This document shows, one piece after another, positions 4,512 to 64,000 of a DNA stretch of 64,000 nucleotides. This DNA is from Candidatus Jorgensenbacteria bacterium. GTDB taxonomy: Bacteria; Patescibacteriota; Minisyncoccia; UBA6257; GWB1-50-10. The notes below the pieces were generated by a model, which did not search any database, was not told where the DNA came from, and saw only the letters and a program-made list of their open reading frames with translations. The position numbers and the translations under genes are program-made. How positions within the stretch are numbered: position 1 is the stretch's first letter; each line of letters opens with the position of its first letter. The stretch lies in assembly GCA_011050075.1 (NCBI GenBank), contig DRGK01000017.1, positions 39,838 through 103,837 on the forward strand. Reading direction: 5' to 3'.

Positions 4512-5177
4512 ATGCGCAGTCGAGAAGATATACTACAAAAGAAGTGGCAGCGATTGTTACAGCACCGGAGATTTTTTCACCTCATTCCATTTATTGATTT
4601 TGTACTTGTTTCCGGTTCTATGGCACTCGGCACAGCTCGTGAAGAGTCGGACTTTGATGTCATTGTGGGTGCCCGCACAGGCAGAATATTTACGGTCCGG
4701 TTCTTTTGCGTGGTTGTGTTTGAGCTCGCCGGCGTGCGACGCGCTCGCGCTGATCATCGTGGGAACGTCAAGGATAAAGTATGCTTTAATCATTTCGTGG
4801 CACCCGGCGGTTACGTACTGGCATCACCGCGCAACGAGTACTCGGAAGTGATGTACCGGAACCTCGTGCCGCTGTACGGCGATAAGCAAAAGATCAGCAA
4901 GTTCGTAAAGGCGAACGTGTGGGTGCGACGCAGTAGGAAGGTCGACTACGCACGGCATCTGATCGGGAGACTAAATCTCGTCAGTCGTGTGCTGATGATA
5001 GCGCTCGGCGGCAGGGCGGGCGACGCCATTGAGCGAACACTTAAGCGGTATCAGATACACCGTATCGCGAAATATAAGAGGCGTCTTGGAGATTCACTGC
5101 ACATCATTTGCACCGATGACGTCATTCAGTTCCACCCGATGCACAAACACATTAGCACGGGCAGCGTTTCTGATTAG
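4512..5177 (+). CDS. Nucleotidyltransferase-domain protein (Pol-beta-like NTase fold), GC-rich, likely horizontally acquired
   Basis: GS…DxD motif (VSGSMALGTAREESDFDVIV); local GC ~52% versus ~40% in flanking genes. Confidence 0.55.
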   Translation: MRSREDILQKKWQRLLQHRRFFHLIPFIDFVLVSGSMALGTAREESDFDVIVGARTGRIFTVRFFCVVVFELAGVRRARADHRGNVKDKVCFNHFVAPGGYVLASPRNEYSEVMYRNLVPLYGDKQKISKFVKANVWVRRSRKVDYARHLIGRLNLVSRVLMIALGGRAGDAIERTLKRYQIHRIAKYKRRLGDSLHIICTDDVIQFHPMHKHISTGSVSD

Positions 5178-10050: not shown

Positions 10051-10689
10051 TTATTTAAATATGTCCTTGTTATTTTTTAACATATTTTCATACTCGTTGA
10101 CAATGTCGTTATCCAGTCCTTGTTTCAAGACAAGTAGAAGTTCTTCATAATACAGCAACTTCTTATCCTTCGGTTGGTGGAACTTTTTCCACATAGCGTC
10201 TCCTTCAATCTTGTGATAATCAATCAACGATTGGATGTTGTGTATCTTGTCTGCCGCTGCAACAAAAAACGAGCCTTCTTCAGCTCGCCTTAGATTTTCA
10301 ATATATTGTTTTAAGCTATCGGTTATTGTGACTCCTTCTACAATGTTCGTTACTCGCTGTCCAAACTCCTTTACCATTTTTTCTTTTGTGTACTCTGGGA
10401 CATCTTCCAGTATATCGTGTAAAAGACCTGCAATGATAATGTCTTCGTCATCCGTGTAGTTGGATAATATGACTGCGACAGAAAATGGATGCACAACATA
10501 TGGATAACCACCATTTCTTCTCTCCTGATTCTTATGTAAAACAGCGGATGTATTTATAGCTTTCTGTATTTCAGGCGTTAGTTTAAACATTCTGTAGTTT
10601 AGTATATCAAATTTGGTGCGCGATGCTACTTGTGAGTTATAATAAAAACAATGCAGAGCGAGATAAAACGGTGTCAGAACTGTAAACAA
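10051..10689 (-). CDS. HD-domain hydrolase of the RelA/SpoT (RSH) family, small alarmone hydrolase-like
   Basis: HPFSVAVIL…LLHDILEDV matches the SpoT HD motif (HPLEVA…LLHDxVED); no synthetase domain. The start is probably the internal Met (MFKLTPEIQKA…, ~10590), because the long ORF start overlaps the divergent gene at 10651. Confidence 0.7.
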   Translation of the reverse strand: MFTVLTPFYLALHCFYYNSQVASRTKFDILNYRMFKLTPEIQKAINTSAVLHKNQERRNGGYPYVVHPFSVAVILSNYTDDEDIIIAGLLHDILEDVPEYTKEKMVKEFGQRVTNIVEGVTITDSLKQYIENLRRAEEGSFFVAAADKIHNIQSLIDYHKIEGDAMWKKFHQPKDKKLLYYEELLLVLKQGLDNDIVNEYENMLKNNKDIFK

Positions 10690-12438
10690 GAGTTCACTAT
10701 TGAACCTGACGACTTTGTATTTTACGAGAAAATAGACGTTCCGCCTCCAACATGGTGTCCGGAGTGTAGGCTCATCAGGCGACTTTGTTTTAATAACCAG
10801 CGAAGCTTATACAAGCGGGAATGTAACCTCTGTAAGAACGCCACTATCTCTATGTACTCATCAGATGCACCGTTTCCCGTGTACTGTCCACGGTGCTGGT
10901 GGTCCGATGATTGGGACCCAATGGAGTACGGTAGAGAATACGATTTTTCAAAATCACTCCTTGAGCAGATACGAGAACTCCAACTGGTAACACCAGTTCC
11001 AGCACTCTCAACTCGTCACCAGACACTCACCAACAGTGAGTACGTCAACATGGCGCACAATTTGAAGAACTGCTATTTGCTATTCAACTCTGACTATGAC
11101 GAAGGGTGTGCATACGGTTCTGAGGTAGAGAACTCGGAGGATTCATTTGACATGATGATGGCAGAATCGTGTCACCTGTCTTATGAGAGTATAAACTGTA
11201 TTAAGTGTTACAGAACCTTCTTTTCTGTGGACTGCAAGGACAGCCAAGATATCTGGTTTTCAAGAAACTTAGTGAACTGCACGAACTGCTTTGGGTGTAC
11301 TAACCTACGTAACAAGAAGTACTACATATTCAATGAGCCACACACAGAAGAGGAGTATCTCGAGAAATTGAAGGAGTTTAATCTTGGCTCTAAGAAGAGC
11401 ATACAAACTGCAAAAGAAAAAGCTCTTGAACTCCACATGAAGTTCCCACGCAAGTTTATGCATGGGAGCCATAATGTTGACGTATCTGGTGACTACGTAC
11501 ATAACTCAAAGGACGTCCACAACACTTTTATTGGAACGGGGTCCGAGCACTGCAGGTATTGTATGTGGTTAATCATTAAAGGAAACAAGGACTGCTACGA
11601 CTTCACCCAGTTTGGAGAAAATACGCAGAATGTGTATGAAACGGTGGGTAGCGGTATTAACCTAAACAATGTTAAGTTCAGTGCCATCTGTGTGGGGGAC
11701 GTACACAACGTTGAGTACACACAGCACTGTTTCGGAGGAGCATATCTCCTCGCCTGCATCGGCTTACGCAACAAACAACACTGCATCCTCAATAAACAGT
11801 ACAGTAAGGAATCCTTCGACAAGCTCAGGGCAGGTGTAATCGAACATATGAACACTATACCGTACACAGATAATAGTGGAAGAACGTACAGGTACGGAGA
11901 GTTCTTTCCCTCAGAACTTTCACCCTTCGCGTACAACGAGACCATCGCTCAGGAATACTTCCCGCTAACAAAGAAAGAAGCAGAAGAACAAGGATACCTG
12001 TGGCGCGAACCAGACACTAAGGATCACAAAATCACAAAGAATGTAGATAGTCTTCCAGACCACATCAGCGACATAGACGACGGCATTCTCAAGGAAACTA
12101 TTGGTTGTGAACACGAAGGAAAGTGTAACGAGCAGTGCACGACTGCTTTCAAGGTAATTTCCTCAGAACTCCAGTTCTACAAGAAAATGAACCTCCCGCT
12201 CCCAAGACTATGTCCAAACTGCAGGCATTACCAACGTCTCAAGCAGCGGAATCCACTGCAGCTCTGTCACCGGAAGTGCACGTGCGATGGTGTGAAATCG
12301 GAGAACGGTGCGTACAAGAACACAGCTGAGCACTTCCACGGCACTGACCACTGTCCCAATGAGTTTGAAACTCCATACGCACCAGAGCGAAAGGAAATAG
12401 TTTACTGCGAGCAGTGTTATCAGACAGAAGTGGTTTAA
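10651..12438 (+). CDS. Large cysteine-rich protein (595 aa) with paired zinc-ribbon motifs at both termini; function unknown
   Basis: N-terminal CQNCKQ…CPECR and CNLCKN…CPRCW; C-terminal CPNCRHY…CHRKCTC and CPNEF…CEQCY; internal repeated NCxxC units; no signal peptide; TATAAT 8 nt upstream of the ATG. Confidence 0.6.
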   Translation: MQSEIKRCQNCKQEFTIEPDDFVFYEKIDVPPPTWCPECRLIRRLCFNNQRSLYKRECNLCKNATISMYSSDAPFPVYCPRCWWSDDWDPMEYGREYDFSKSLLEQIRELQLVTPVPALSTRHQTLTNSEYVNMAHNLKNCYLLFNSDYDEGCAYGSEVENSEDSFDMMMAESCHLSYESINCIKCYRTFFSVDCKDSQDIWFSRNLVNCTNCFGCTNLRNKKYYIFNEPHTEEEYLEKLKEFNLGSKKSIQTAKEKALELHMKFPRKFMHGSHNVDVSGDYVHNSKDVHNTFIGTGSEHCRYCMWLIIKGNKDCYDFTQFGENTQNVYETVGSGINLNNVKFSAICVGDVHNVEYTQHCFGGAYLLACIGLRNKQHCILNKQYSKESFDKLRAGVIEHMNTIPYTDNSGRTYRYGEFFPSELSPFAYNETIAQEYFPLTKKEAEEQGYLWREPDTKDHKITKNVDSLPDHISDIDDGILKETIGCEHEGKCNEQCTTAFKVISSELQFYKKMNLPLPRLCPNCRHYQRLKQRNPLQLCHRKCTCDGVKSENGAYKNTAEHFHGTDHCPNEFETPYAPERKEIVYCEQCYQTEVV

Positions 12439-45524: not shown

Positions 45525-45564
45525 TTCATTGATAAAGCTGTATGAAGCTTTATACTGAGCGTAT

Positions 45565-46128
45565 ATGAACACAACCACAATAGTAATAATAGTTGCGGCA
45601 GTTATCTTGGCTTGGATTATCCTTGCGTATAATGGTTTCATACGGCGTAAAAACAGGACCGATGAGGCATGGTCAGATATTGATGTACAGTTGAAAAGAC
45701 GATATAACCTTATTCCTAATATAATTGAAGCCGTAAAAGGATACGCTAAACACGAAAAGAGTGTATTGGAGGAGGTAACAAAAGCAAGAACAGAAGCAAT
45801 GAATGCAGAAGGCACCGGAAATGTTGGTGAAGTTGGGAAAACAGAAAACATGCTCTCCGGAGCCCTCAAAACATTATTTGCGGTAGCAGAAAACTATCCT
45901 GACCTGAAAGCGAACGCGAACTTCTTGGACCTACAGAGAGAACTTGCTGATACAGAAAATAAAATACAGGCAGCGAGACGTTTCTACAACACAAATGTGA
46001 GAGATCTTAATACGCTCATTGAGTCATTCCCGTACAACATTATCGCAAACCTGTTTCATTTCAGTAAAAGAGATTTCTTTGAACTCGAAAACGAAAAACA
46101 GAGAGAAGTAGTAAAGGTTAGTTTTTAA
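45565..46128 (+). CDS. lemA: LemA-family protein
   Basis: N-terminal TM plus AWSDIDVQLKRRYNLIPNIIEAVKGYAKHE…. Confidence 0.8.
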   Translation: MNTTTIVIIVAAVILAWIILAYNGFIRRKNRTDEAWSDIDVQLKRRYNLIPNIIEAVKGYAKHEKSVLEEVTKARTEAMNAEGTGNVGEVGKTENMLSGALKTLFAVAENYPDLKANANFLDLQRELADTENKIQAARRFYNTNVRDLNTLIESFPYNIIANLFHFSKRDFFELENEKQREVVKVSF

Positions 46129-46136
46129 CTAACAAC

Positions 46137-47033
46137 GTGGCTACGCTCTATACACATAAGGATTCAAATATCCGCAAGACTTGGTTTCTGTTCACTGTTT
46201 TTCTTATAGTTGTGGTTGGTATTGGTTTTGGATTCTCTTATTTTTATAGCAGTCCGGTCATACTATATATTGCCATCGCGTTCAGTCTTGTAATGAATAT
46301 TGCGGCGTACTGGCATTCCGATAAATTAGTCCTCAAGATGACAAAAGCAGTTCCGGTAGAAAAAAAGAATTATCGGGAACTTTATAATATTGTTGAAAAC
46401 TTATCTATAATCGCTGGTCTGCCAATTCCAAAGATTTACATCATAAAAGAATCACAGTTAAATGCCTTTGCAACCGGTCGTAATCCCGAACATGCAGTAG
46501 TTGCAGTAACCGAAGGGTTACTTGAACGGCTTGACCGCTCTGAGCTTGAGGGTGTGCTTGCACACGAACTATCACATATAGGCAACCGCGATATGCTTAT
46601 TTCAACGGCTGCAGTGGTGCTGGTTGGATTCATATCAATACTTGCGGATATATTAATGCGTTCATTTTTTTGGAGAACATTTGCCGGAGGAGGTAACAGG
46701 CGTGGGGGTTCAGGAGGTATGATGATCGCCGGAATCGTACTTGCCATACTCGCACCGCTCGGCGCAGTCATGATACAGCTTGCGATTTCAAGAAAGCGGG
46801 AGTATCTTGCTGATGCAAGCGGAGCACTCCTTACTCGCTATCCCGACGGACTTGCAAGCGCATTGAAAAAGATTTCTGCCGATAAGACACCAATGCGGGT
46901 TGCGAATAATACAACCGCACACCTCTGGATTTCTAGTCCATTTAAAGGTACAAAGATAAAAGCACTTTTTCAGACACACCCGCCCGTACAGGAACGTATT
47001 AGGCGACTCAACTCATTAGGAGAAACAGTATGA
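46137..47033 (+). CDS. htpX: M48-family zinc metalloprotease HtpX homolog
   Basis: 4 TM; HEXXH (LAHELSHIGNRD); usual lemA-htpX pairing. Confidence 0.85.
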   Translation: MATLYTHKDSNIRKTWFLFTVFLIVVVGIGFGFSYFYSSPVILYIAIAFSLVMNIAAYWHSDKLVLKMTKAVPVEKKNYRELYNIVENLSIIAGLPIPKIYIIKESQLNAFATGRNPEHAVVAVTEGLLERLDRSELEGVLAHELSHIGNRDMLISTAAVVLVGFISILADILMRSFFWRTFAGGGNRRGGSGGMMIAGIVLAILAPLGAVMIQLAISRKREYLADASGALLTRYPDGLASALKKISADKTPMRVANNTTAHLWISSPFKGTKIKALFQTHPPVQERIRRLNSLGETV

Positions 47034-47350
47034 GTATAGAACAACCAATACAGGAACCGTCACCAATGGATGCTTTCCGTCAAGAACTTGAAGAATTTCG
47101 TTCAGCAGAGCAAAAAGAAGGAACCGCAAAACATCTTTCAATGTCGAAAGACAGGGAGCCCGTTGATTTCAATCTGCTCACTGAGGAAGATATGGGCATC
47201 TGGGAAAGATGTAAAGCAGGTGAACTGACGCGCAATGATATCGAAATGTATAAAGATAGTATTCCGGAGGAAGAGGTTGATCGAAAAGAATTTGCGGCTT
47301 TTGTGGTCCACAAATGGATGGAGCAGATGTATAAGGAGGGTAAACTATAG
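47030..47350 (+). CDS. Acidic hypothetical protein
   Basis: 106 aa, overlaps the htpX stop; no recognisable motifs. Confidence 0.4.
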   Translation: MSIEQPIQEPSPMDAFRQELEEFRSAEQKEGTAKHLSMSKDREPVDFNLLTEEDMGIWERCKAGELTRNDIEMYKDSIPEEEVDRKEFAAFVVHKWMEQMYKEGKL

Positions 47351-47434
47351 GAAGGGTGCCAGAGTGGTCCAATGGAACAGCTTGGAAAGCTGTGGCTCGA
47401 AAGGGTCTCGTGGGTTCGAATCCCACCCCTTCCG
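47350..47434 (+). tRNA. tRNA-Ser (anticodon GGA), long variable arm
   Basis: GGAAGGGTGCCAGAGTGG…anticodon loop TTGGAAA…long variable arm…GTGGGTTCGAATCCCACCCCTTCCG. Confidence 0.8.
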
Positions 47435-47570
47435 CAGACTGCTTTCCGCCACATTATTTTATAGTGTGTTGGAAAGTGATCTATGGGGTGGAGTTCGAAC
47501 CAGTGAGAATCTTCCCTATTTGTCTAAGAGCGAAGCGATTAGTTACAAACAGCAATGCCGCTCGTAGCGG

Positions 47571-47630
47571 TCCCACCCCTTCCGCAAATCGCTTTCCGTC
47601 GCACCATTTTATGGTGTACTGGAAAAAGTT
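47571..47630 (+). repeat. Direct repeat of the tRNA-Ser 3' end plus ~40 nt of downstream sequence (att-site-like partial tRNA duplication)
   Basis: tcccaccccttccgca at 47421-47436 and 47571-47586, with ~80% identity continuing ~40 nt past each copy. Confidence 0.55.
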
Positions 47631-47713
47631 TCTGTTTTCATTTGACCTTTATTAGTGCTTGTGTTAATTTACTCACAGAAACCTGACAACTAAATATAGA
47701 AAGGTGGTTTCGT

Positions 47714-48343
47714 ATGAGAGGTACATTGTTCTTTGAGATTCCTGATGATCAGGAGATTATAGTGAAGCTCGTTGAAGCCGTGCCCCCGAACTGGTCATGG
47801 GTGGACGGCAGTCTCCATGCTCCCGAGATGCTCATTGCCTCTGGGCAAGTCGAAGAGCATACTGGATTCGCAGTAAGGCGTTCCCACGGAAATAACCCAA
47901 CCATCGTCGGAAGCTACAACCAAGACGAGCGTAAGCAAAGAAACCCCGATCTCTTCGCAATCATGGTGGATCAGAAGTTACCCGGTTTTATCTTCTTTGA
48001 TGAGGCAGGGTACAGGACTCCTATCATCAGCACTGAACTCGCCAAGCGCATCACTGTCGGTTTCCTTCAAAAAGGCTACCGTGGTGGCCTCCGATTTTTC
48101 AAGGACTGCTACGGCAACTGTAAATTCGACAATCCTGCACGGTGCGACATAGCCTCCAAACCGTGGCATGGAGGCCCGGCGTCTTATGAAGAAGGAGGAC
48201 CACAACCCGCCCGGATAAAGATAGAATGGGAAGGTAAATATGGCGGTGAGGAAGAGGACATCGCGCCCATCGTCACTGTGTGTCGCTCCCTTAATCTGCG
48301 CGAGTATACACTTGCGGAACCAGTAGAAGCTGCAGCTTCCTAA
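47714..48343 (+). CDS. Hypothetical protein, GC-rich (~50%), probably horizontally acquired
   Basis: 209 aa, no recognisable motifs; GC clearly above the local background; next to the tRNA-Ser repeat. Confidence 0.45.
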   Translation: MRGTLFFEIPDDQEIIVKLVEAVPPNWSWVDGSLHAPEMLIASGQVEEHTGFAVRRSHGNNPTIVGSYNQDERKQRNPDLFAIMVDQKLPGFIFFDEAGYRTPIISTELAKRITVGFLQKGYRGGLRFFKDCYGNCKFDNPARCDIASKPWHGGPASYEEGGPQPARIKIEWEGKYGGEEEDIAPIVTVCRSLNLREYTLAEPVEAAAS

Positions 48344-48363
48344 AATCGTATGAGATGTTTAAT

Positions 48364-48397
48364 GGCGCCAACATAATAGTTGGCGCCCTTTCTTTTT
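48364..48397 (+). terminator. Rho-independent terminator
   Basis: GGCGCCAACataataGTTGGCGCCctttcttttt. Confidence 0.65.
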
Positions 48398-48468
48398 AAG
48401 AATTTGCTGCCATAGAGTAAGATAGGTTATCATTATTAATACAAAGGTAAAATATAATATAAAAATAT

Positions 48469-49128
48469 ATGATAAAAATTAATCAAGAAGGTTTCGCGAA
48501 CATAGCTCTCATTGTTCTCGTTGTTGTGCTTGTCAGCGTAGTAAGTTATTTTGCGTTCGTCAAAAAATTACCTGATGTCATTGAACAGGCAACTACTCCT
48601 ACGTCTTCAGTAAGCAGTGAAACTATGCCATGGATTTCTTACACCTATTCATCCATAGAATCGGGGATTTTACCAAATATAACTTTCAAATATCCCTCTT
48701 TGTTCGGTGATAATCCCACCTTCATTTCATCTCGCAACACGAACCGGCCTGGAAATATCTCTGATGACTGGGGAGGTCTCATGGAATTTAATCCGACAGG
48801 AGCGTTTGAGGATCGCGGTCTCCGGATAGAATTCTTTAAAAGAGCAAACGCCAAGGATAATTTTGAAAGTTACGTGACTGAATCTGCTGCAGCTGGCGAT
48901 TGGACCTCTCCAAAATACTTTCAAACTGATAACTATCGGGTTGCTCGATTGAGACTTGCTTCAGATTCTCACTATGACGCAGATGTGAGCTGGTATTTTA
49001 TAGAACTTCCCAATAAAAGCATCTTGGCAATTTCAACAAGTGGAGATAAAAAATATCTCTTTGATGATGACCAAGATGGAAATTCCACAAGAGATAAGAT
49101 TATCTCGACGCTTACAATCGTTCAATAA
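48469..49128 (+). CDS. Membrane-anchored/secreted hypothetical protein
   Basis: N-terminal signal anchor (IALIVLVVVLVSVVSYFAF); 219 aa. Confidence 0.45.
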   Translation: MIKINQEGFANIALIVLVVVLVSVVSYFAFVKKLPDVIEQATTPTSSVSSETMPWISYTYSSIESGILPNITFKYPSLFGDNPTFISSRNTNRPGNISDDWGGLMEFNPTGAFEDRGLRIEFFKRANAKDNFESYVTESAAAGDWTSPKYFQTDNYRVARLRLASDSHYDADVSWYFIELPNKSILAISTSGDKKYLFDDDQDGNSTRDKIISTLTIVQ

Positions 49129-49177
49129 GGCAACTTGCCGCCAAAGAAAAAACCTGAAATCCGTTTAAATCAGACAT

Positions 49178-49212
49178 AAAAAACCCGCCATCAGTGATAA
49201 ATGGCGGGTTTT
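49178..49212. terminator. Bidirectional terminator between convergent genes
   Basis: AAAAACCCGCCATcagtgataaATGGCGGGTTTT. Confidence 0.7.
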
Positions 49213-49254
49213 AACGCAGTGTCAGGAGCGTAAGTTCTGGAGGATTCAGAATTT

Positions 49255-51999
49255 CTATCTCTCAAATATCTCGCCTAACCTTCTAATTTCTTCGCCATAC
49301 AAAGCCCAGTCGCCGCGGCGCTGGGCAGACATAGCCCGGTCAAAATGATCTTTTGCTTGTTTAATTAAATCTTGACCGATCGCCGGTCTGCTTGGAACTA
49401 TCGTAGTCGTTCCTTTATCCACTACAATCCGACCACTGAATATTCTTTCTAAAGCCAAATCCAGAGTTTCTTCCATAGCAATACGGTTTTCATAGGCCAC
49501 GATAACCCTCTTAAGTTCTGGAATCTTGCCACCTTCAGCCCGCAGATAAATAGGCTGAACATAAATAAGAGACTCTTCAATTGGAATTACCAAAAGACTT
49601 CCCCTAATCACTTCAGAACCTCTTTGATCCCATAGAGATATCTGTCGGGAAATGTCCGTATCTTGGTTGATGCGGTTGGTAATCTGCTTAGGTCCGAAGA
49701 CCAGTTTTTGCTTAGGGAAACGGTACACTACCAATTGACCGTAGAATTCCCCGTCATTGCGTGCCACCATCCAAGCTGAAAGATTATCTTTTCCGCGAGG
49801 CGTAAACGGGATCATTAAAATAAATTCTTCCTTTTCTTCACCCGGCAGCTTCATAATCATATGCCGCATCATTGGATCGGCCTGTCCTCCACCGGCAATG
49901 ATTGGAATTTGCCACTGATCTTCTTTGTTGTAGAAGATCTGCGCCTCATCCATATGATACACCGTGTAAAGTGCTGTCTGATAAATGAACAAGTCTTCAG
50001 GATATCTAATATGAGTCCTCAAATCCTCGTCCATTTGCTCAAGCGGCAAAAATGAATCCTTAAAAATCTTGGCATACGTTTTAATGATCGGGTCATCTTC
50101 ATCTGCGATATAAAATGTCATTCTGCCGTCATACGCGTCAATCACCACCTTCACTGAATTTCTTATATAGTTGAGGCGCTTGCCCGGTAGAGAACTAAAG
50201 GCGTCTCTCATCTGCTCAGCGTACGGATAACGATCTGAAGTTGTGTAGGCATCATACACCCATTTCAACTCACCATCCTTGGTAACAACCATATATGGAT
50301 CATTATCCAGACTCAAAAAAGGCAGTGCTCGCTTAACTCTCTCCTCAATATTGCGATAATACATTATCCTTGATTCACTTGTTATGTCGTCGGACAAAAG
50401 AATTTTTAATGACTTAAATCTTAATGCAAACAGTGCTTTTCTGAATATTGATTCAATCTGTACACCTCCCTGTCCTTCATAATCTGCAAAGACATTCTTC
50501 TCACCAGACGGATAATTGAATTCTTGTGCTTTGGTATTAACCACGACCCAATCACTCGCCAACTCTCCGTAGTATATTTCAGGCCTACTCACCGAAAGCG
50601 ATTCTATACTGGAGGAAGGCGGCAAGTCTTTCAAAAACAGAACCGGTAAACCTTCTGGCGTTACTTCATTAACTGGACTTAGGGTGAGCCCAAAGCCGTG
50701 CGTAAAGGTCAAGCGCTCGTTAATAAAAGTACGCTGGGGAAGGCTCGCGGTATTAAGCTCTCGGGGAGAAAGTAGAACCTGACGGTAGTCACCGTTTAGG
50801 GTATACCTGTCGTTATCAATGGAAACAAAATCATAGTACGTGCGGATTTCTTGAAGCTGGCCAAATGTGTCAAGTAGGGGTTCGCGGTCCCAGAGCCGTA
50901 CATTTTTAATAGTGGAGCGGTTGCGATTAATATCAGACATGGTGAGCGTACCCTCGCCGGTTATATCACGCTCTATTACCGTATCCAGAGCAAAAGCTTT
51001 TTGCGTGGCTGCAATATTGTGCTCTATATACGGAGTTTCCTTAACCAGTTCATTTGGCGAAACCACGAATTTTTGCAGGAAAAAAGGATACGCCTGGCCA
51101 CCCAAAATAGAAGTTATGACATAAATACCGATACCTAAAACAATAAATCGATTATTCGTTTTAAACATATTCATCACAGTCAGTACAGCTGCGATGATGG
51201 CAACAAAAATAAGTGTCTTCAAGAACGGCAACACAGCATTAATATCGGTAAAATTGGCGCCGGTAAACGGTCCTGTAGAACCATAGAGCAAAGAGGGAAT
51301 TTCTATAGCGTAAATCTTGAAACTTGTTAAAACAAATAGAAAAGCGATGAGTATTGATAGATGGATTTTGGCCGGCTTTTCCATGAATAAAGATTTCATA
51401 ACCGTGCCCGGCACCGGCTGTCTCAAGGTAATAGCGCCCCGCAAAACATAGCTCGCGGCAGTTCCTATAAGAGAAGCAATAATAAGCCAGAACCAAAGCC
51501 CGACCAAAAACTGTATAAACGGTAAATCAAAAAAATAAAAGCCAATATCGCGACCAAAAATTGGATCGAGTATATTAAAAGGTGTCGCGTTAAAATACTT
51601 TAGTACTGTCTCCCAACTGCTCACTCCGAATAGTCCGGTCAAAAATCCTAGCACAAGAGAGATGGGTAAGGTGCCTTTATTAATATATTTTTCCGCGTCT
51701 AATTCTTTAATCTTAATAGTCTCTCCACGTTCGCCTCCACGCACATTGATAGTAAACGGGACTGACGCAACAAGTCGCTTAGCCAACCAAAGATTACCGT
51801 AGATAATAAAAAAAGTCAGAGCACCCACACCTAATCCCAAGAAAATCTTAGAGTACAGTATAGTGGTAAAAATAGTACTAAAACCAACTTCTACAAACCA
51901 GTACCAGTCAGTTAATAGTTGAAAAAAACGTGGTGCAGCAAAAACAAACAGTGCTGCCAAACCGTATATAATATATGAGGTAACACGCTTTTGTATCAT
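49255..51999 (-). CDS. UPF0182-family large membrane protein
   Basis: 914 aa; N-terminal multi-TM region (…LLTDWYWFVEVGFSTIF…) followed by a large extracytoplasmic domain, as in UPF0182. Confidence 0.6.
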   Translation of the reverse strand: MIQKRVTSYIIYGLAALFVFAAPRFFQLLTDWYWFVEVGFSTIFTTILYSKIFLGLGVGALTFFIIYGNLWLAKRLVASVPFTINVRGGERGETIKIKELDAEKYINKGTLPISLVLGFLTGLFGVSSWETVLKYFNATPFNILDPIFGRDIGFYFFDLPFIQFLVGLWFWLIIASLIGTAASYVLRGAITLRQPVPGTVMKSLFMEKPAKIHLSILIAFLFVLTSFKIYAIEIPSLLYGSTGPFTGANFTDINAVLPFLKTLIFVAIIAAVLTVMNMFKTNNRFIVLGIGIYVITSILGGQAYPFFLQKFVVSPNELVKETPYIEHNIAATQKAFALDTVIERDITGEGTLTMSDINRNRSTIKNVRLWDREPLLDTFGQLQEIRTYYDFVSIDNDRYTLNGDYRQVLLSPRELNTASLPQRTFINERLTFTHGFGLTLSPVNEVTPEGLPVLFLKDLPPSSSIESLSVSRPEIYYGELASDWVVVNTKAQEFNYPSGEKNVFADYEGQGGVQIESIFRKALFALRFKSLKILLSDDITSESRIMYYRNIEERVKRALPFLSLDNDPYMVVTKDGELKWVYDAYTTSDRYPYAEQMRDAFSSLPGKRLNYIRNSVKVVIDAYDGRMTFYIADEDDPIIKTYAKIFKDSFLPLEQMDEDLRTHIRYPEDLFIYQTALYTVYHMDEAQIFYNKEDQWQIPIIAGGGQADPMMRHMIMKLPGEEKEEFILMIPFTPRGKDNLSAWMVARNDGEFYGQLVVYRFPKQKLVFGPKQITNRINQDTDISRQISLWDQRGSEVIRGSLLVIPIEESLIYVQPIYLRAEGGKIPELKRVIVAYENRIAMEETLDLALERIFSGRIVVDKGTTTIVPSRPAIGQDLIKQAKDHFDRAMSAQRRGDWALYGEEIRRLGEIFER

Positions 52000-63230: not shown

Positions 63231-64000
63231 ATGAAAGAATACTTAGCGGTCTTACAAGACATTCTGGATAACGGTATTGATAGAGATAACCGAACCGGTA
63301 TTCCATCTCGTGCGTTGTTTGGTAAACATGTAACTGTCGATTTACAAGATGGTTTTCCGGCAGTAACCACCAAAAAACTTGCGTTCAAGGCGATGAGAGC
63401 AGAGCTGATCTGGTTCTTGAGTGGAAGCAGGGATGAACGATATCTGGAACGACTCGGCGCCAAGATATGGAGAGCTAATGCGGAAGCGCCGTACTGGAAA
63501 CCAAAAGCGGAGTTTGAAGGCGATGTCGGTCGTATATATGGCGTTCAGTGGCGTTCGTGGAGAACACCGAATGGTGAAGAAATAGACCAAGTCGCGCGGC
63601 TCATAGATGGACTGAAAAATGATCCTTTTGACCGCCGTCATATCATCACCGCCTGGAATCCTGGCGAACTTGACCAAATGGCACTGCCCCCATGTCACTT
63701 GCTGTACCAGTTTCACGTTGACGATGAAAACGGACTGCATTTGACCATGTATCAGCGGAGCTGTGATATGTTTCTCGGCGTGCCGTTCAACATTGCATCG
63801 TGTGGCTTGTTCACATATATCATTGCCCAGATAGTGGGAATGACACCGAGAACGGTACAGATAACACTTGCCGATGCTCATATCTATCACAACCACTTTG
63901 ATGCAGTCCGAGAACAGTTGAGTCGGGAACCATTTACCCGTCCGCGTCTCTCAATAAGCTCTGACATCACCGATACGTTCGTACGAGAACTGAAGGATCG
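63231..64000 (+). CDS. thyA: Thymidylate synthase (ThyA), 3'-truncated by the window edge
   Basis: MKEYLAVLQDILDNGIDRDNRTGIPSRALFG…HIITAWNPGELDQMALPPCHLLYQFHV…; frame open to the window end. Confidence 0.9.
   Translation, partial: MKEYLAVLQDILDNGIDRDNRTGIPSRALFGKHVTVDLQDGFPAVTTKKLAFKAMRAELIWFLSGSRDERYLERLGAKIWRANAEAPYWKPKAEFEGDVGRIYGVQWRSWRTPNGEEIDQVARLIDGLKNDPFDRRHIITAWNPGELDQMALPPCHLLYQFHVDDENGLHLTMYQRSCDMFLGVPFNIASCGLFTYIIAQIVGMTPRTVQITLADAHIYHNHFDAVREQLSREPFTRPRLSISSDITDTFVRELKD

Follow-up and report, generated by a model that had tools for sequence, protein, structure and literature searches.

How does the 3' end of a tRNA gene come to stand twice on the same strand, 150 nucleotides (nt) apart? 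The question is raised by a serine tRNA gene in a 64-kb stretch of DNA, called the window below, from a metagenome-assembled genome (MAG) of Candidatus Jorgensenbacteria, an uncultured lineage of Patescibacteria (the candidate phyla radiation, CPR) from marine sediment. An earlier note on this DNA had read the repeat as an integration scar and the two genes that follow it as probably the rest of a decayed island. The repeat proves to be a real footprint of a known kind at a tRNA gene, and the adjacent genes were wrongly implicated. Site-specific integration is tentatively put forward here as the origin of the repeat, and the same tRNA gene marks a sharp boundary between near-identical and deeply diverged DNA.

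The repeat consists of a short copy of the tRNA gene end and its flank, with further pieces between the two copies. Read along the window, the features are these:

47350 to 47435, plus strand: intact tRNA-Ser gene, anticodon GGA (ARAGORN; Rfam RF00005, 56.9 bits, E 8e-11)
47421 to 47475, plus strand: direct-repeat copy 1: 16 nt from the end of the tRNA region, continued by the 3' flank with hairpin H1 (repeat search)
47441 to 47477, plus strand: hairpin H1, imperfectly palindromic, with 16 base pairs; no U-tract follows (-17.5 kcal/mol)
47485 to 47513, minus strand: inverted, degenerate copy of tRNA positions 47401-47429 (29 nt, 76% complementary)
47514 to 47570, plus strand: spacer of 57 nt, with a small GC hairpin (47557-47571) directly before copy 2
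47571 to 47625, plus strand: direct-repeat copy 2, with the exact 16-nt core (47571-47586), hairpin H2 and a T-rich tract (repeat search)
47593 to 47625, plus strand: hairpin H2 (-13.7 kcal/mol, z = -3.62)

The direct repeat (47421-47475 against 47571-47625) covers 55 nt at 82% identity with a spacing of 150 nt, and its first 16 nt are exact, which bears out the earlier description of it. Outside this core, the hairpin flank of 39 nt is 74% identical (10 of 39 positions differ), and at that level of identity 16 matches in 16 positions have a chance probability of 0.008. The 16 nt of copy 1 comprise the 3' strand of the T-stem, the 3' strand of the acceptor and CA, and the core thereby runs from the T-stem to 2 nt past the discriminator. 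A search for the repeat elsewhere, suggested in the earlier note, found the 16-mer at two sites only in the 64 kb; two matches appeared in none of 100 shuffles. If a small gap is allowed, the direct copy gains about 10 nt on its upstream side (CTCGT...), at a score of 71 that none of 500 shuffles reached. The window tRNA gene does not fully encode CCA: it reads ...CCG-CA, with GCA at 47433-47436, as in the displaced copy.

Two stable hairpins and an inverted tRNA T-arm copy (47485-47513) accompany the direct copies and had been overlooked before. H1 folds far better than its shuffles (z = -5.46, 0 of 200) and forms the centre of symmetry between the 3' part of the tRNA and the inverted fragment, whose arms are offset by just 4 nt. 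Between H1 and H2 there is one two-sided compensatory change (U-A to C-G) and there are two one-sided, wobble-compatible changes, and both hairpins still fold. A terminator scan called neither H1, which lacks the U-tract, nor H2, which is followed by AAAAAG and a T-rich run. The hairpin pattern CTTTCC...GGAAA matches H1 and H2 only in the 64 kb, and the other stand-alone tRNA genes of the window have terminator hairpins at their 3' sides and no duplicated end. The inverted copy covers the end of the variable arm, the T-arm and the start of the acceptor 3' strand, and its score of 30 was reached by 1 of 500 shuffles. A pseudo-tRNA on the minus strand between the hairpins was considered and rejected: ARAGORN and Rfam report none, and its T-stem would not pair.

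Together, H1, the inverted T-arm copy, the spacer, the 16-nt core and H2 make up an insert of about 190 nt without genes (47436-47625), after which come the promoter region and then a gene for a protein of 209 amino acids (aa). The spacer shows no significant similarity to tRNA-Ser in either orientation, and derivation from it or from another tRNA of the window was rejected with alignment scores at shuffle level. Among the loci compared, the spacer matches only the window's own population and one relative, L007. Rfam 15, run on the region, passes the tRNA alone, with all else far below its gathering score (for example 23.8 against 90 bits).

Several simple accounts were tried and set aside. 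An assembly artefact is ruled out, since the sequence is identical across five independent assemblies of the same population and a diverged copy exists in L007. A simple tandem duplication fails because the repeat fills just 55 nt of the 150-nt period, the remaining 95 or so being dissimilar by eye. A small protein is no better: the 43-aa open reading frame (ORF) at 47555-47686 is frameshifted by a deletion in L007. The stretch has no other copy within the 64 kb, as a miniature inverted-repeat transposable element (MITE) or a small repeated element of the repetitive extragenic palindromic (REP) or Correia-like kind should, and the duplication is 55 nt long, against the target-site duplication of a few nt expected of a MITE.

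Close relatives differ in whether they carry the insert. Three were compared: L007, with 85% identity in the 209-aa protein, and L008 and L009, with 64% amino-acid identity in it. The insert is present in L007 and absent in L008 and L009. These two have the same gene order as the window, with the 209-aa gene and the next one, encoding 219 aa, at the same place and without the repeat. Their tRNA-Ser has a mature sequence identical to the window's but encodes CCA (L008 5876-5879); directly after it come a T-rich tract and the 209-aa gene's promoter region, with no hairpin and no second copy. In L007 the insert and its copy 2 are present, but a deletion of 43 nt has removed H2; the L007 contig starts inside H1, and L007 lacks the 219-aa gene. 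More distant homologues of the 209-aa gene lie in unrelated neighbourhoods.

Duplications of similar form also occur elsewhere. The arrangement recurs, in unrelated sequence, at the tRNA-Ser(GGA) gene of a distant Patescibacterium (L013, L014, L015): the last 13 nt of the tRNA and a hairpin-forming flank of 74 nt recur 202 nt downstream at 96.5% identity (L013 3960-4345, minus strand). The 115 nt between these copies match nothing else among the loci compared, in either orientation. An AhpC gene and a homologue of the 209-aa gene lie nearby, the latter with 57% identity, 1.7 kb off and on the other strand. This second case at the same tRNA hints at a recurrent process. Scanned across genomes, the 24-mer of the tRNA 3' end proved too unspecific, but the 120 mostly unrelated bacteria that it returned provide a background set: two of them have a second copy within 3 kb, and none has a copy 160-3000 nt away. 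One, a Casimicrobiaceae MAG (L019), has a copy that starts at the anticodon loop, the classical shape of an attachment (att) site, after a gene-less spacer of about 85 nt. The other, a Lysobacteraceae MAG (L033), has a repeat of 131 nt, a gene-less spacer of 39 nt and inverted tRNA-arm-like fragments after the terminator. Very small, gene-less duplications of tRNA 3' ends, in distant Patescibacteria and other phyla, may be a distinct class that deserves a systematic survey.

Among the possible origins of the insert, site-specific integration is ranked first: the insert would be an attL/attR remnant, or else a non-autonomous element of miniature size; we hold this tentatively, at somewhat less than an even chance. 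An element carrying its own tRNA-Ser 3' end and terminator (attP) would have integrated into the 3' end of the tRNA gene, producing attL (the tRNA plus H1) and attR (the 16-nt core plus H2). Almost all of the element would later have been deleted, unless it was miniature and non-autonomous from the start, and about 95-135 nt now separate the cores. The segment of crossover and identity would be the exact core of 16 nt, and the 74%-identical hairpins would reflect an older homology between the flanks of attP and attB. Since other stand-alone tRNA genes of the window end in terminator hairpins, an attP that brought its own hairpin would restore a normal gene end.

Integration is placed first because an exact core stands amid 74% identity, because that core starts in the T-stem as in an att duplication, because the spacer looks foreign, with no local or tRNA origin, and because another lineage has this architecture at its copy of the tRNA gene, with classical-looking cases in other phyla. 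The relatives add support. L008 and L009 lack the whole stretch, with identity ending exactly at the tRNA 3' end; divergence from L008 jumps at the tRNA, and the insert follows the allele of the 209-aa gene, not the tree of the backbone.

Several observations weigh against an integration remnant. Called genes within 10 kb on either side include no integrase, recombinase, excisionase or other mobile-element family, as the earlier note had said of integrases, and searches of viral, metagenome and phage sequences, described below, found no parent element with the spacer or the core plus hairpin. The repeat runs 39 nt past the tRNA (74 nt in L013) and so exceeds the textbook identity block of attP and attB, and the att model leaves the inverted tRNA fragment unexplained. 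L008 and L009 carry a different, deeply diverged haplotype from tRNA to gene, without a hairpin, and not a simple attB. The insert is about three times more conserved than adjacent synonymous sites, which is unexpected for a dead scar. Finally, all four known examples have small spacers (39-115 nt), and random decay of kilobase-sized islands would not be an obvious source.

The inverted fragment brings in a different origin, a local replication error. Template switching at H1 would have copied the 3' region of the tRNA backwards and then forwards, in the manner of a tandem inversion duplication, followed by divergence and small deletions; no foreign DNA and no recombinase would be involved. 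The tRNA pieces do stand in direct, inverted, direct order, with H1 as the axis of symmetry between the first two, and the inverted copy (76%) and the direct copy (74% outside the core) are equally diverged, which fits one event. The empty searches for a mobile-element gene or a related element also suit this explanation. It does less well at the expected second junction, where the 57-nt spacer resembles neither the tRNA nor local sequence, and with the younger L013 duplication, whose 115-nt spacer is likewise unmatched. A perfect 16-nt core amid 74% identity is left unexplained as well. We regard template switching as unlikely, though it is the main rival of integration.

Conservation of the insert raises the further question of whether it has been kept for a function, which would be compatible with either origin. 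One possibility is a structured trailer on the 3' side of the tRNA transcript, ending at H2, in which some segments pair with the tRNA 3' end; another is a portion of the 209-aa gene's control region. Between L007 and the window, the insert has 10 substitutions in 150 aligned nt (5 in the 57 nt of the spacer), compared with a proportion of synonymous differences (pS) of 0.205 in codons 1-170 of the adjacent gene (P = 2e-6). However, a later exchange of this part of a mosaic locus could also account for the low divergence. The two hairpins have persisted through 26% divergence, with a compensatory change in one pair, and the L007 substitution at 47464 (G>A) in H1 turns a G-U pair into A-U. Five of the seven substitutions in 47480-47590 fall at unpaired positions of the predicted fold and one changes G-C to G-U; only two sequences enter this comparison, however, and by the author's estimate the placement is not significant (about 0.17). 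One substitution disrupts the long-range helix. The whole region of 311 nt folds well below its shuffles (z = -5.9), but strong folding is expected wherever inverted copies of tRNA arms occur, and no Rfam match rises above noise. A similarly shaped duplication at the same tRNA in a distant lineage would fit selection, yet L007 lacks H2, and L008 and L009 lack everything while keeping both tRNA and gene. On balance, a retained function is improbable.

In a related reading, the insert would be no decayed remnant: it would be a miniature unit, complete at about 150-200 nt, that is mobile or under selection. Its parts would be the copied tRNA 3' end, a hairpin and some 100 nt that are its own. In Patescibacteria, tRNA-Ser(GGA) would be its recurrent target, each insertion would duplicate the end of the gene, and constraint would preserve the unit, perhaps as a tRNA-trailer RNA. 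This would agree with spacers that all measure 39-115 nt, none of 160-3000 nt having been seen, with the recurrence of the form in a distant lineage and with an insert that evolves about three times more slowly than synonymous sites. It nevertheless seems to us a rather improbable account.

The search for a parent element covered three collections. In IMG/VR, patterns for the core plus hairpin, the inverted piece, the spacer and the L013 repeat found nothing, in exact-word searches that could miss a diverged parent. Exact-word searches likewise returned the window's own contig alone from the JGI metagenomes and zero matches from GenBank phages. The bare 16-mer gave 12 viral matches, which is chance level, and two of the 12 lay in a tRNA-like context. 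An autonomous counterpart that shares the att core and encodes an integrase was found in none of the three.

One contig from the same sediment sample joins sequence of this genome to phage DNA. It is 2.3 kb long (L145; LAZR01022049.1, 1-2274) and 100% identical to the window over the LemA and HtpX genes (45560-47038). At 11-12 shared nt (GTATGAGTATA), 5 nt past the HtpX stop codon, the sequence switches to that of a phage gene, which encodes a Gp3-like recombination directionality factor (PF18897, E 6e-48). The phage part is 91% identical to a phage contig (L146) that carries DnaB, HNH, methyltransferase and PD-(D/E)XK nuclease genes. This contig is probably a chimera, or an illegitimate join of host and phage through the shared nucleotides, and the join does not lie at the tRNA.

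If the repeat marks an integration, do the genes beyond it belong to the integrated DNA? The order of genes is PBP, a 110-aa ORF, YchF, LemA, HtpX, a 106-aa ORF, tRNA-Ser(GGA), the 209-aa ORF and the 219-aa ORF, followed by UPF0182 (convergent), a 3D-domain protein and RluA. Exact matches to the window are contigs of marine-sediment metagenomes. The 106-aa ORF ends in a stop codon (47348-47350) whose last base is also the first of the tRNA, which leaves no room for a separate tRNA promoter, and L008 has 45 extra nt at this junction. Beyond the insert, the features are:

47714 to 48343, plus strand: gene for a conserved 209-aa protein of Patescibacteria, GC-rich (homologue searches)
48364 to 48387, plus strand: intrinsic terminator of the 209-aa gene, a GC-rich stem of 9 base pairs, then CTTTCTTTTT
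48469 to 49128, plus strand: gene for a 219-aa protein with an N-terminal hydrophobic segment, of ordinary composition (GC 39.7%)
49180 to 49212, not assigned to one strand: bidirectional terminator hairpin between the convergent 219-aa and UPF0182 genes (repeat and terminator scans)

Both genes are resident, conserved genes of Patescibacteria and not cargo of the insert event. The 135 nt between the repeat copies contain no conserved ORF, and the two genes lie outside the pair, 3' of both copies; they therefore cannot be the load of an insertion between attL and attR. Neither is an orphan or without recognisable homologues, as had been claimed: one search returned 35 homologues of the 209-aa protein (37-85% identity) and a profile search 334 clusters at 50% identity, and the 219-aa protein has 23 homologues at 50-86% identity and is 87% identical to its L008 orthologue. 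The two proteins have no match in Pfam, PHROGs, NCBIfam or PADLOC. For the 209-aa protein, the AlphaFold2 (AF2) model is confident (pLDDT 91.9), and its predicted fold has no convincing match among the solved structures of the PDB. It thus represents a sizeable family with a confidently predicted fold that is entirely uncharacterised.

Composition had been the other argument for foreign origin. The 209-aa gene is indeed GC-rich, at 51.7% against 43% for the window, close to the value given earlier, whereas the 219-aa gene, also called atypical, is not. The outlier check proposed in the earlier note weakens even the first case: GC at third codon positions (GC3) of the 209-aa gene is 53.8%, at the upper edge for the window (+1.9 standard deviations, sd), and three other window genes are as high (ORFs 4512-5177, 10651-12438 and 63342-63896, with GC3 of 0.54-0.59 against a window mean of 0.41). 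Loci of the family were examined in the window (47714-48343), L007, L008, L011, L013 and L136-L141, and the gene is richer in GC than its surroundings in 10 of 10 loci from different genomes (0.47-0.55 vs 0.37-0.47). High GC is therefore a trait of the whole family and no sign of recent import here.

Could the two genes (47714-49128) still be the decayed remains of an island's cargo, brought in at the tRNA? Besides the GC content of the first gene, it counts in favour that gene content between the tRNA and UPF0182 varies among relatives, with AhpC and the 219-aa gene present or absent, and that allele replacement at the 209-aa gene has taken place between close lineages. In four of six independent contexts, moreover, a homologue of this gene lies within 1.1 kb downstream of a tRNA gene on the same strand. 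On the other side, the genes stand outside the repeat pair, the core occurs just twice in the 64 kb, and there is no integrase; both genes are conserved in place in L008 and L009, which lack the repeat. The 219-aa gene, ordinary in composition, diverges like the backbone, and the 209-aa gene is under purifying selection. An island is thus very improbable and largely refuted. What survives of the integration signature is the att-like shape and the stretch of about 190 nt missing in two relatives, without the two genes as cargo. Comparing the tRNA-Ser locus across relatives, as had been proposed, cuts two ways: the supposed cargo genes are conserved, which speaks against an island, and the repeat is found in some relatives only, which speaks against an ancestral fixed element. 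The locus is a cautionary case in which composition and a label of "no homologs" misassigned neighbouring genes to an island.

The frequent position beside tRNA genes is an observation of its own. A rough binomial estimate for four of six contexts is 4e-4, and the tRNAs upstream are Ser, Leu-CAG, Leu plus His, and Arg, with unrelated small ORFs between (L011 4850-6624; L138 846-2413; L141 5061-6606; window 47350-48343). The 209-aa gene may travel with variable DNA next to tRNA genes. A conserved two-gene module beside tRNAs was rejected, as the ORFs between tRNAs and 209-aa homologues are mutually unrelated. Further along, an AhpC/peroxiredoxin gene precedes UPF0182 in L008 (7470-8081) and L007 (989-1552). 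In the window, 97 nt (49162-49258) that contain the 49180-49212 hairpin replace it; together with the terminator of the 209-aa gene, this hairpin matches the strong terminators announced in the earlier note.

What, then, separates the window from L008 so abruptly? Nucleotide identity of 98.3% to L008 stops exactly at 47435, the tRNA 3' end, and it stops there in L009 too. Gene by gene, the synonymous divergence per site (dS) and, where given, its ratio to the nonsynonymous value (dN/dS) between window and L008 run as follows:

YchF, LemA and HtpX genes: dS 0-0.017, with 100% amino-acid identity
209-aa gene: dS about 2.0, pS 0.70 and 0.8-0.9 in most 30-codon blocks, dN/dS 0.12
219-aa gene: dS 0.30
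UPF0182 gene: dS 0.17
RluA gene: dS 0.25

Near-identical DNA thus meets synonymously saturated alleles at the tRNA gene. The dN/dS of 0.12 points to purifying selection on the 209-aa gene. Against L007, the dS of this gene is 0.31, comparable to that of the backbone (0.27-0.34). The backbone pairs the window with L008, while the 209-aa allele and the insert pair it with L007. Around the 3' end of the 209-aa gene and the next spacer (about 48250-48470), L007 groups with L008. Judged from these alignments, the locus is a mosaic: diverged lineages have recombined here homologously, with the conserved tRNA serving as left anchor, and deeply diverged alleles of the 209-aa gene have been swapped between closely related Jorgensenbacteria lineages. 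In such a mosaic, L008 and L009 offer no clean empty site for the insert. The sharp boundary indicates that divergent Jorgensenbacteria lineages exchange DNA by homologous recombination anchored in conserved tRNA genes. Partial tRNA copies near tRNA genes are the standard footprint of integrating elements, and finding one is in itself ordinary; the sharp, tRNA-anchored allele swap of a conserved, uncharacterised gene is the more informative result.

The known systems set the insert in context. Elements with tyrosine integrases, such as prophages, integrative and conjugative elements (ICEs) and genomic islands, enter at tRNA 3' ends and leave attL/attR duplications, a criterion that programs for finding islands, Islander among them, rely on. 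As in these, an intact tRNA is accompanied by a displaced 3' fragment in direct orientation, 150 nt downstream on the same strand with 16 of 16 nt matching; the block of identity runs from the T-arm to just past the gene, and the gene end is restored with a hairpin. Unlike them, the insert has no integrase, no cargo, just 135 nt between the copies and no cognate element found; its repeat extends 39 nt into the flank, and an inverted tRNA fragment is present. The cargo proposed for such an island lies outside the repeats and is present in L008 and L009. tRNA gene fragments from the integration of elements have been described (PMC9897764, PMC7192596).

Smaller elements offer a second comparison, in which att-like direct repeats flank DNA free of recombinase genes, as they do here. 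cis-Mobilisable elements (CIMEs) are integrase-less, att-flanked elements that derive from ICEs by internal deletion, as in Streptococcus thermophilus. In principle, the insert could likewise be mobilised by an incoming element of the same att specificity. Known CIMEs are kilobases long and their parent ICEs have been identified, whereas the insert spans about 150 nt and its parent was not found.

Tandem inversion duplications resemble the insert in their direct, inverted, direct order and in the palindrome, here H1, at the first junction. In Salmonella, work of the Roth laboratory reportedly traced them to snap-back or template switching at quasi-palindromes, and they are said to be large and unstable. 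The pieces here are 16-55 nt long, old and diverged, with 57 nt of unrelated sequence at the second junction. A last parallel is 3'ETS-leuZ of E. coli, an RNA from the 3' external transcribed spacer (3'ETS) of a tRNA. Unlike that RNA, the insert is known from DNA alone, and close relatives do without the stretch; like it, the insert is a structured, relatively conserved stretch directly after a tRNA that ends in a hairpin and a T-rich tract.

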